DNA of 50,981 bases from the sequence record PV340545. One strand, given 5' to 3'. The notes beneath the pieces were generated by a model, which ran no database searches, was not told where the DNA came from, and worked only from the letters and a program-made list of their open reading frames with translations. Shown in pieces: positions 7,200 to 7,712 of this stretch (positions within the stretch are counted from its first letter, which is position 1; each line of letters begins with the position of its first letter). This DNA is from Escherichia phage PhiR5_1. A program made the position numbers and the translations under genes.

Positions 7200-7490
7200 T
7201 TAGTGATTCAGGCCGTTACCGCGTCCGTCGAGAAAAACTTCCACGAGCAAATCACGGGTATAAGTGCGCTCGATGCCGCGATGCAGATAAAGCCGTCCGC
7301 GTAAATTAGCTGATGCAGTCCAGGTACCATCTTTGTGTTTGACCAGCATTCCTGGCATGACCGCGCCGCGATTAACGGTCTGCGTTCCGTAATGTTGATG
7401 AACCATAAAAACTCCTGCCCGTAAGCTGGGCTGCTGAACATATAGAGACTTCTGCGCGTATTCAGGCGGTGGATGGCCGCCGGTTGTCAT
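7200..7490 (-). CDS. Hypothetical protein in kil/cIII position
   Basis: 96-aa ORF first downstream of PL; not Arg-rich so not N-like. Confidence 0.4.
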
Positions 7491-7628
7491 AACTAAGCCG
7501 CCTCGTTGAAGCGACTAAGGTATGAAATGTTGAGTTGATTTCAGCTGGTCACACCGACGTTCACGCGTCCGTTTCACCCCTCGCACTCCCCGAAGCCTGC
7601 TGAAATTCAAACTGCGGATCTAAGCGGT

Positions 7629-7678
7629 CATCGCAACGGTGAATCAGGTGGTTGCCGTATCGTTGTGTTGTTGCGATG
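7629..7678 (-). ncRNA. Structured leader element immediately downstream of PL (candidate nut/put-like antitermination RNA)
   Basis: 9-bp inverted repeat CATCGCAAC / GTTGCGATG (7629-7637, 7670-7678) enclosing a second imperfect hairpin. Confidence 0.25.
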
Positions 7679-7683
7679 AACCT

Positions 7684-7712
7684 ATTTAAAACTATAGTTG
7701 TTTTACCGTCAA
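7684..7712 (-). promoter_or_regulatory. PL promoter with OL operator region
   Basis: On minus strand TTGACG-17 bp-TTAAAT; sequence closely parallels PR (TTGTTGAC..AAAACAAC.ATAGTTTT). Confidence 0.65.

Follow-up and report, generated by a model that had tools for sequence, protein, structure and literature searches.

A conserved structured leader RNA as a candidate antiterminator of the early-left operon in N-less lambdoid phages

Escherichia phage PhiR5_1 (PV340545, 50,981 nt; this whole stretch of DNA is referred to below as the window) is of a lambdoid E. coli prophage type, with phages PhiR34_1, Turner, 4A7, Lambda_4C10 and Perceval (genus Bievrevirus) as its closest relatives. To the left of its cI gene lie two accessory genes, the divergent early-left promoter PL, a long leader of 271 nucleotides (nt) and then kil, gam, bet and exo. 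The leader opens with a structured RNA of 139 nt (7677-7539, minus strand), the leader RNA considered here, which consists of a 5'-terminal hairpin (P1) and a core of two further hairpins (P2 and P3). The open reading frames (ORFs) of both early operons, scanned with PHROG and Pfam, were recognized as cI, cro, a YdaT-type cII, Ren, Ant, Q, an excisionase and others, and none as an N-like protein. A six-frame scan of positions 1-20000 for arginine-rich N-termini returned only spurious overlapping ORFs and one mini-ORF inside the leader. An initial annotation, made from the sequence alone, had reported no N gene between PL and gam; this holds, and the mini-ORF that it missed (7610-7515) is not conserved as a coding sequence. 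No protein family matches the mini-ORF, and no lambda-type N with an N-terminal arginine-rich motif was found just 3' of PL. Lambda-type nut sites, with boxA and boxB in both early operons, are likewise absent from the window, where boxA occurs only after cro.

The placement of PL, with its -35 and -10 elements and a putative start at A7677, rests on a pair of repressor-operator-like 19-mers that overlap the promoter elements. The sequence AAAACAACYATAGTTTTAA has exactly two copies in the window (7704-7686, minus strand, in PL; 10356-10374, plus strand, in the early-right promoter PR), none being expected from shuffled sequences, and both overlap a TTGAC-type -35 element with 17-nt spacing. 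Eight unrelated promoter/immunity classes, comprising 161 copies, are joined to the leader RNA at one identical base. In all eight the hairpin opens 35 nt after the -35 and 7 nt after the -10 element, its first base being thereby in register for +1. Phage Perceval has a different immunity region, and its similarity to the window starts abruptly at this same base. In an alignment of one related locus, L128, with phage HK022, base 7677 stands opposite A1 of the putL transcript (numbering of PMC9378689).

The leader RNA is widespread. A BLAST search with the 168-nt stretch 7685-7518 recovered it from 2210 of the 5426 complete E. coli genomes (41%), nearly always at 95-100% identity, and no annotation lies under these copies. 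It also occurs in 15 phage genome records of the GenBank phage collection, including Perceval, 4A7, Lambda_4C10 and the PhiR series. An Edwardsiella type was found in the plasmid-prophage pFL6-60 and four IMG/VR contigs, and a third type in a single HK639-like contig (L133). A covariance model of the core, R1, run in cmsearch with filters off, matched the window at 7631-7539 with 118.4 bits (E = 4.7e-25, a rough value, as are all R1 E-values, which come from a short calibration). This was the sole significant match, the next scoring 11 bits, and related loci gave one match each. No Rfam 15 family matches the leader, even at E <= 10; over the whole window STnc100 alone matches at the gathering threshold, the leader and the cro-cII region having also been scanned at E <= 10. 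Pattern searches gave no further type. A three-anchor pattern had three matches among species-representative genomes, all in unrelated bacteria with no trace of the element and taken as chance; a looser pattern in metagenome contigs returned mostly chance matches and further E. coli-type copies; and exclusion patterns in viral contigs returned the Edwardsiella type and L133 only.

The initial annotation had also drawn attention to a structured leader directly after PL, with a hairpin at 7629-7678. The hairpin is present and proved to be the first of three conserved helices. In its 9-bp version, CAUCGCAAC (7678-7670) pairs with GUUGCGAUG (7637-7629), which adds C7678-G7629 to the P1 stem of Table 1. 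Since the stem persists in other lineages with differing arms (AUCGAG/CUCGAU, AUCGAA/UUCGAU and AUUGCA/UGCGAU), the pairing goes beyond chance; the last of these is found with O157-type immunity, in which a foreign 5' arm, AUUGCA, still pairs with UGCGAU. Read directly, the leaders of HK639 and L133 also start with AUCGA...UCGAU, upstream of put or of P2-P3.

The core was compared in 18 non-identical sequences belonging to the three sequence types, for which RNAalifold independently predicted the same P2 and P3 as had already been drawn. Pairing is kept in 99% of cells, seven pairs are compensatory, and the covariation score was reached by 0 of 500 shuffles; controls with slid partners paired in only 27-42% of cells, with at most one compensatory pair. 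Both sides have changed at P2 pairs 15-42, 17-40, 19-38 and 20-37, several pairs having G-U intermediates, and P3 covaries at pairs 63-76 (GC/CG/GU), 65-74 (CG/UA) and 60-79 (AU/GU/GC). Point variation among E. coli-type copies affects bulges or loops, or makes G-U pairs. The linking stretches GACCGCUUAGA, GAGUGCGAGGGGUGAA and GGUGUGACCA are invariant between the E. coli and Edwardsiella types, and L133 differs by one base in each of the last two; such long invariant single strands would fit contact with a protein or with polymerase. Prefix folding of the window leader gives P1 first and P2 second. A further pairing, specific to the E. coli type, can join the 3' side of P1 (CACCGUUGCG) to that of P3 (CGUGAACGUCGGUG) and underlies a global minimum free energy (MFE) lower than that of the conserved fold; it could be an alternative conformer or a lineage accident. 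Beyond P3 the three types have entirely different sequences, with no shared expression platform and no terminator directly after the core. Thus, the core behaves as an autonomous unit and not as an aptamer with its expression platform; the coupling of a conserved aptamer to a conserved platform (terminator/antiterminator or SD-sequestering helix), which marks a riboswitch or attenuator, was not found.

The put RNA of HK022 and the put-like RNA of HK639 act in cis, with no need of protein factors, and bind RNA polymerase at the zinc-binding domain of its beta' subunit, whereby pausing and termination are suppressed. Rfam has no family for them, giving no gathering-threshold match on HK022 or HK639, and a put covariance model, R2, was therefore built from 17 put sequences, with put-like sequences collected from IMG/VR. 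R2 scored HK022 putL at 101 bits, HK639 putL at 92 and HK022 putR at 47. On the window its best score was 10.4 bits, at an unrelated site (20429), and neither the window nor any of 13 reference loci and 100 loci bearing the leader RNA proved to contain put. Conversely, R1 found no leader RNA in 100 put-bearing loci, and the two never occur together in about 1 Mb of loci of each kind. No alignment of the leader with HK022 putL or putR or with HK639 putL could be made by eye. Since R2 finds nothing in the window or in the element-bearing loci, the leader RNA is, judged by sequence and secondary structure, not a member of the put family. The initial annotation had suggested N-independent antitermination, by a put-like RNA or by a divergent system. 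The comparative evidence favours its general direction, and a device that is RNA-based and sits in the PL leader; of its two options, the put-like RNA fails against R2, and the divergent system is the one that is supported.

Two natural replacements point to a functional link between the leader RNA and put. L128, a phage of HK022 immunity and one of the eight promoter classes, has operators and a PL like those of HK022. The two share about 80% identity over the end of cI, the operators and PL, as far as the base that aligns with putL A1; beyond this +1 position L128 carries the leader RNA in place of HK022 putL. L133 and HK639 are near-identical on both sides of the annotated putL-like RNA, over about 55 nt on its upstream side and more than 100 nt on its downstream side, and in L133 the put core alone has been exchanged for P2-P3. 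A terminator about 800 nt downstream in L133 (AACCCGCTCCGGCGGGTT followed by TTTT) is almost identical to the annotated one of HK639. The part that replaces put in L133 is P2-P3 (7626-7547 in the window) and not P1, the hairpin flagged initially; P1 lies outside the substituted segment and is probably an accessory, separate 5'-end feature.

Two further features of HK639 were noted in this comparison. The feature annotated there as 'putL-like' includes, 3' of the put core, a hairpin UUUACC...GGUAAA (L004 2412-2469; L133 5063-5120), the loop of which holds a near-boxA (GCUCUUUG) and GCGAGGGGCUGA. The latter recalls the core motif GCGAGGGGUGAA of the leader RNA, which L133 would then have twice; the likeness may be chance or a shared contact site. 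HK639 also has an 'M3-like RNA' (L262 1911-1970) after cII in its right operon. No counterpart was noticed in the window, where cII and O overlap and R1 finds no second copy, and it was rejected as a relative of the leader RNA, to which it bears no resemblance.

Downstream of the core, the leader contains a second module that is common to phages with N, with put or with the leader RNA. Its homologues follow N/tL1A in phi80 (L005 3500-3560) and are also found in HK639 (L004 3490-3560) and L133 (about 5900-5990); in HK639 the module follows put-dependent genes and part of it is annotated as a terminator. Because the same module follows nutL-N or put in other phages, the leader RNA lies exactly in their slot. 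The stem of the module hairpin covaries (AGUCGC/GCGGCU, GAGUCA/UGGCUC and GGCAGA/UCUGCC). The invariant block AUGACAACCGGCGGCCAUCCACCGCC opens a short ORF with a polyproline run; this ORF is 18-20 codons long in both HK639 and phi80, and in the window it shares the frame of kil. The module might serve as a terminator region or encode a leader peptide that causes stalling.

The left operon of the window includes a canonical intrinsic terminator, so that transcripts from PL must pass a terminator, and a consensus scan gave a weaker candidate between kil and gam (Table 1). PL transcripts of the Edwardsiella type reach their first sense gene only after about 1.3 kb, a stretch with no plausible sense gene (short unannotated ORFs only) and two genes on the opposite strand. 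Stretches free of sense genes in this way are expected to be prone to Rho.

The boxA after cro is exact. GCTCTTTAACAA at 10649-10660 agrees at 12 of 12 positions with the rrn boxA consensus, the 12-mer GCUCUUUAACAA, and is the only exact copy in the window. The initial annotation had described it as lacking a boxB, and indeed the surrounding 81 nt have no stable structure (MFE -4.1 kcal/mol; z = +0.23). No exact or near boxA was found in the PL leader. Among 106 loci with enough flank, 53 share this boxA after cro, where it goes with the cro/immunity type of the window, and some Edwardsiella-type phages have the related versions CGCTCTTTAACGG and CGCTCTTTAATCA there. Perceval-type phages carry the same leader RNA and no boxA after cro; boxA is thus part of the cro/immunity module and uncoupled from the leader RNA.

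On these grounds we put at roughly 60% the probability that the leader RNA is a cis-acting processive antiterminator of the PL operon, a functional analogue of put with an unrelated sequence. As it emerged, the leader RNA would stay bound to the same RNA polymerase, either directly, in the manner of HK022 put, or through host elongation factors, and the polymerase would become resistant to the early-left terminators, including the intrinsic terminator at 4214-4196. The leader RNA would in this way take the place of nutL and N, and the boxA after cro would be a separate device of the immunity module. We infer antitermination from the position of the leader RNA, the natural cassette swaps and its mutual exclusivity with put; the start site, the action in cis and the binding partner belong equally to the inferred part of this proposal.

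Several points weigh against it. The compensatory changes come from few independent events, as there are three sequence types only, and the structure of P2 and P3 was partly derived from the same sequences that were used for the pair counts. In O157-type and L133 versions the 5' arm of P1 is altered or missing. The consensus fold of the window sequence (-33 to -36 kcal/mol) is 4-6 kcal/mol less stable than its global MFE structure, which relies on long-range pairing that is not conserved in the other types. Lambdoid phages are mosaics that commonly exchange segments at module boundaries, and a swap is no proof of equal function. The literature covered on N-less lambdoid phages, Bievrevirus and YdaS/YdaT prophages does not describe the leader RNA, but a paper on the antiterminator RNAs of HK639 (King 2011) lay outside that coverage, so an earlier description is possible. 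Finally, R1, with filters off, found no second copy downstream of PR in the window.

The right operon must therefore manage differently. No put was found in the right operon of the window and no strong intrinsic terminator was predicted on the plus strand between PR and Q. This operon may plausibly need only protection from Rho by Nus factors, or nothing. Our guess is that boxA would recruit NusB/S10 and other Nus factors and shield PR transcripts from Rho.

Among other explanations, the leader RNA might be a nut-like loading site for host Nus factors or for an unrecognized phage protein, the RNA itself not binding polymerase. The invariance of its single strands is typical of protein-binding sites, and the same phage has a perfect boxA on its PR side. 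There is also, as a lead only, a weak likeness of CGCUUAGA to the lambda boxA CGCUCUUA and a likeness of GGUGUGAC to boxC GGUGUGUG. However, these likenesses are short and not significant in a leader without a boxA, and in the three lineages bearing the RNA, which share few genes, no N-like ORF was found. Such a loading site is rated as unlikely.

Of a similarly low probability is a different role for the leader RNA: it might stabilize the 5' end, be a site of RNase III or translational control for the first genes, sense a ligand as a riboswitch, or give rise to a small RNA acting in trans. Hairpins placed exactly at the 5' end are well established to protect transcripts from decay, small RNAs are common in prophages, and a short transcript could end within the 271-nt leader at the conserved hairpin and the UUAGUUAU after it (7516-7487). 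Against such roles, the core precedes unrelated sequences in the three types, with neither an expression platform nor a terminator directly after P3. They would also leave unexplained why the leader RNA specifically replaces a proven antiterminator in two backgrounds and never co-occurs with put, and would leave these phages without an early-left antitermination device despite the terminator in the operon.

It is very improbable that the leader acts through a very short N-like peptide encoded by the 31-codon arginine-rich ORF (7610-7515), an ORF that some phages have fused to kil. Its RLRGVRGVKRTRERR resembles an arginine-rich motif, and in Perceval, where a TAG to CAG change joins the mini-ORF to kil, the frame is open for 139 codons and for that reason annotated as a single 139-aa 'Kil' protein. 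Yet the ORF has a TTG start and no Shine-Dalgarno (SD) sequence, stops after five codons in L133, and in the Edwardsiella type has lost both its start and its arginine motif (KRTRERR to KRMWKHG). Substitutions in its homologues keep base pairs and not residues, it has no Pfam match, and there is no boxB-like hairpin on the PR side; it was rejected as an N gene. Least credible of all is a functionless remnant of a nutL-N deletion in a lambda-like ancestor: in phi80 it is N that precedes the module at 7524-7440, but covariation, strong conservation across Escherichia and Edwardsiella phages, the 15 phage records, the presence in 41% of E. coli genomes and the same-base fusion to eight promoter types all contradict it.

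Table 1. Features of the PhiR5_1 window discussed in the text
Feature	Position	Strand	Details
PL promoter (putative)	7684-7712	-	-35 TTGACG 7712-7707; 17-nt spacer; -10 TTAAAT 7689-7684
Transcription start, +1 (putative)	7677	-	A; first base of P1
P1, 5'-terminal hairpin	7630-7677	-	AUCGCAAC (7677-7670) pairs with GUUGCGAU (7637-7630)
P2, irregular hairpin	7582-7626	-	outer CGC/GCG; internal loop UUAGA / GGAGU; middle CCG/CGG; inner AGUUUG/CAGGCU; loop AAUUUCAG
P3, irregular hairpin	7547-7578	-	GGU/ACC, A-U, AC/GU, GACG/CGUC; hexaloop CGUGAA
RNA core matched by R1	7539-7631	-	contains GACCGCUUAGA, GAGUGCGAGGGGUGAA, GGUGUGACCA
31-codon TTG ORF	7515-7610	-	arginine-rich (RGVKRTRERR); inside P2-P3; no SD; rejected as N-like
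Second leader module	7440-7524	-	covarying hairpin 7516-7496; invariant block AUGACAACCGGCGGCCAUCCACCGCC (7490-7465)
kil-like cell-division inhibitor gene	7200-7406	-	68 aa; first protein gene of the PL operon; SD GGAG 7415-7412
Terminator-like hairpin, kil-gam (candidate)	7159-7176	-	GCCCGGCAUUUCGCGGGC then GAUAUUUUCA; consensus scan; weaker
Canonical intrinsic terminator, PL operon	4196-4214	-	GGGAGCUACAGGCUCC then UUUUUUAUUAUU; intergenic, upstream of DksA-like gene, xis and int
cI	9611-10366	-	PHROG/Pfam scans
cro	10405-10635	+	PHROG/Pfam scans
rrn-type boxA	10649-10660	+	GCUCUUUAACAA; 14 nt after cro stop; about 270 nt downstream of PR; no boxB
YdaT-type cII	10705-11244		PHROG/Pfam scans; followed by O, P, ren and nin region
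Q	17454-17849		PHROG/Pfam scans

Several neighbouring features were noted in passing. The product of the kil-like gene has RefSeq and GenBank homologues labelled 'cell division inhibitor' or Kil and no Pfam or PHROG match. This region (7208-7441, minus strand; L001 4103-4522) is annotated inconsistently in public records, as a 77-aa ORF in a different frame in PhiR34_1, as a 139-aa 'Kil' running through the structured RNA in Perceval and as a 68-aa inhibitor in RefSeq; the 68-aa reading (7406-7200), with its GGAG SD sequence, fits best. Further along the early-left operon, the gene at 4458-5210 (minus strand) matches the PHROG 'queuine tRNA-ribosyltransferase' (E = 2e-99) and possibly encodes a DpdA-type 7-deazaguanine DNA-modification enzyme. 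The two accessory genes between cI and PL (7915-9491, minus strand) code for a kinase of the HipA_2 family (250 aa) and for a DUF3037 protein of 280 aa; they have their own intrinsic terminator (7881-7860, minus strand) and occupy the position of lambda rexAB. In an O157:H7 prophage the same slot is filled by a SIR2 protein, and in Perceval by transmembrane or hypothetical proteins; it looks like a hot-spot for defence or toxin genes.

On the right side, an island like P22 immI lies between ren and the nin genes (13726-15040). Its minus-strand gene (13726-14073) encodes an Arc/Mnt-like repressor and lies beside a small ribbon-helix-helix-like ORF (14029-14301), with an Ant anti-repressor at 14291-15040; transcripts from PR must cross the opposite-strand gene. 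Directly 3' of Q, the STnc100 match to Rfam is full-length (143 bits; 18417-18622, plus strand) and has a terminator hairpin at its end (18592-18611); this is probably the leader of PR', the target of Q.

In the literature covered, RNA-only processive antitermination in phages is essentially represented by one sequence family, put, which serves as a model for the control of RNA polymerase by a nascent RNA. The wider claim, evenly balanced in our estimation, is that the leader RNA forms a second class of phage RNAs that make host RNA polymerase terminator-resistant, structurally unrelated to put, interchangeable with it as a cassette and found, within prophages, in about 40% of the E. coli genomes sequenced. 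Lambdoid phages would then commonly rely on RNA-only early antitermination, which would be no curiosity of HK022. A second, unrelated RNA in the same slot would offer an independent solution with which the binding surface and the mechanisms of anti-pausing and antitermination could be compared. It would likewise account for the expression of recombination, kil and integration genes in very common N-less E. coli prophages and phages, a group that includes O157:H7 prophages and gut Bievrevirus-like phages. Further, the leader RNA would be a compact, portable read-through part.

Among known systems, the EAR and LoaP-leader elements of Firmicutes are also encoded in leaders and give operon-wide read-through, but they differ in organism, sequence and operon type, and LoaP needs a NusG paralogue. 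The boxA after cro is identical to the consensus bound by the rrn boxA/Nus complex (NusB-S10-NusA-NusG-SuhB), and, as in rrn leaders, no phage protein would be needed; unlike in that system, boxA is here found on the PR side only and in some immunity types only. The N/nut system of lambda, including N of phi80, occupies the same map position between PL and kil-gam-bet-exo, and the boxA of the window lies at the position of nutR. In phi80 the second leader module comes after N/tL1A, and in the window after the leader RNA, but N protein is absent from the window, as are boxB on both sides and boxA in the PL leader. The closest comparison is with put. The leader RNA has no detectable sequence or covariance-model similarity to put, its conserved single-stranded motifs are different, its helices and conserved loops have no correspondence to those of put, and it has no second copy downstream of PR, whereas putL and putR are two. 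Like put, however, it belongs to the early-left transcript of N-less lambdoid phages, where it is promoter-proximal, at or near +1 of PL, and each transcript has a 5'-terminal stem. In outline, though not in helices or conserved loops, the two cores may also be alike, each with two adjacent irregular hairpins in about 70-80 nt (P2-P3 spans 80 nt, its hairpins lying 3 nt apart), and both RNAs are found in the same slot of otherwise homologous genomes, as in L128 and HK022 and in L133 and HK639.

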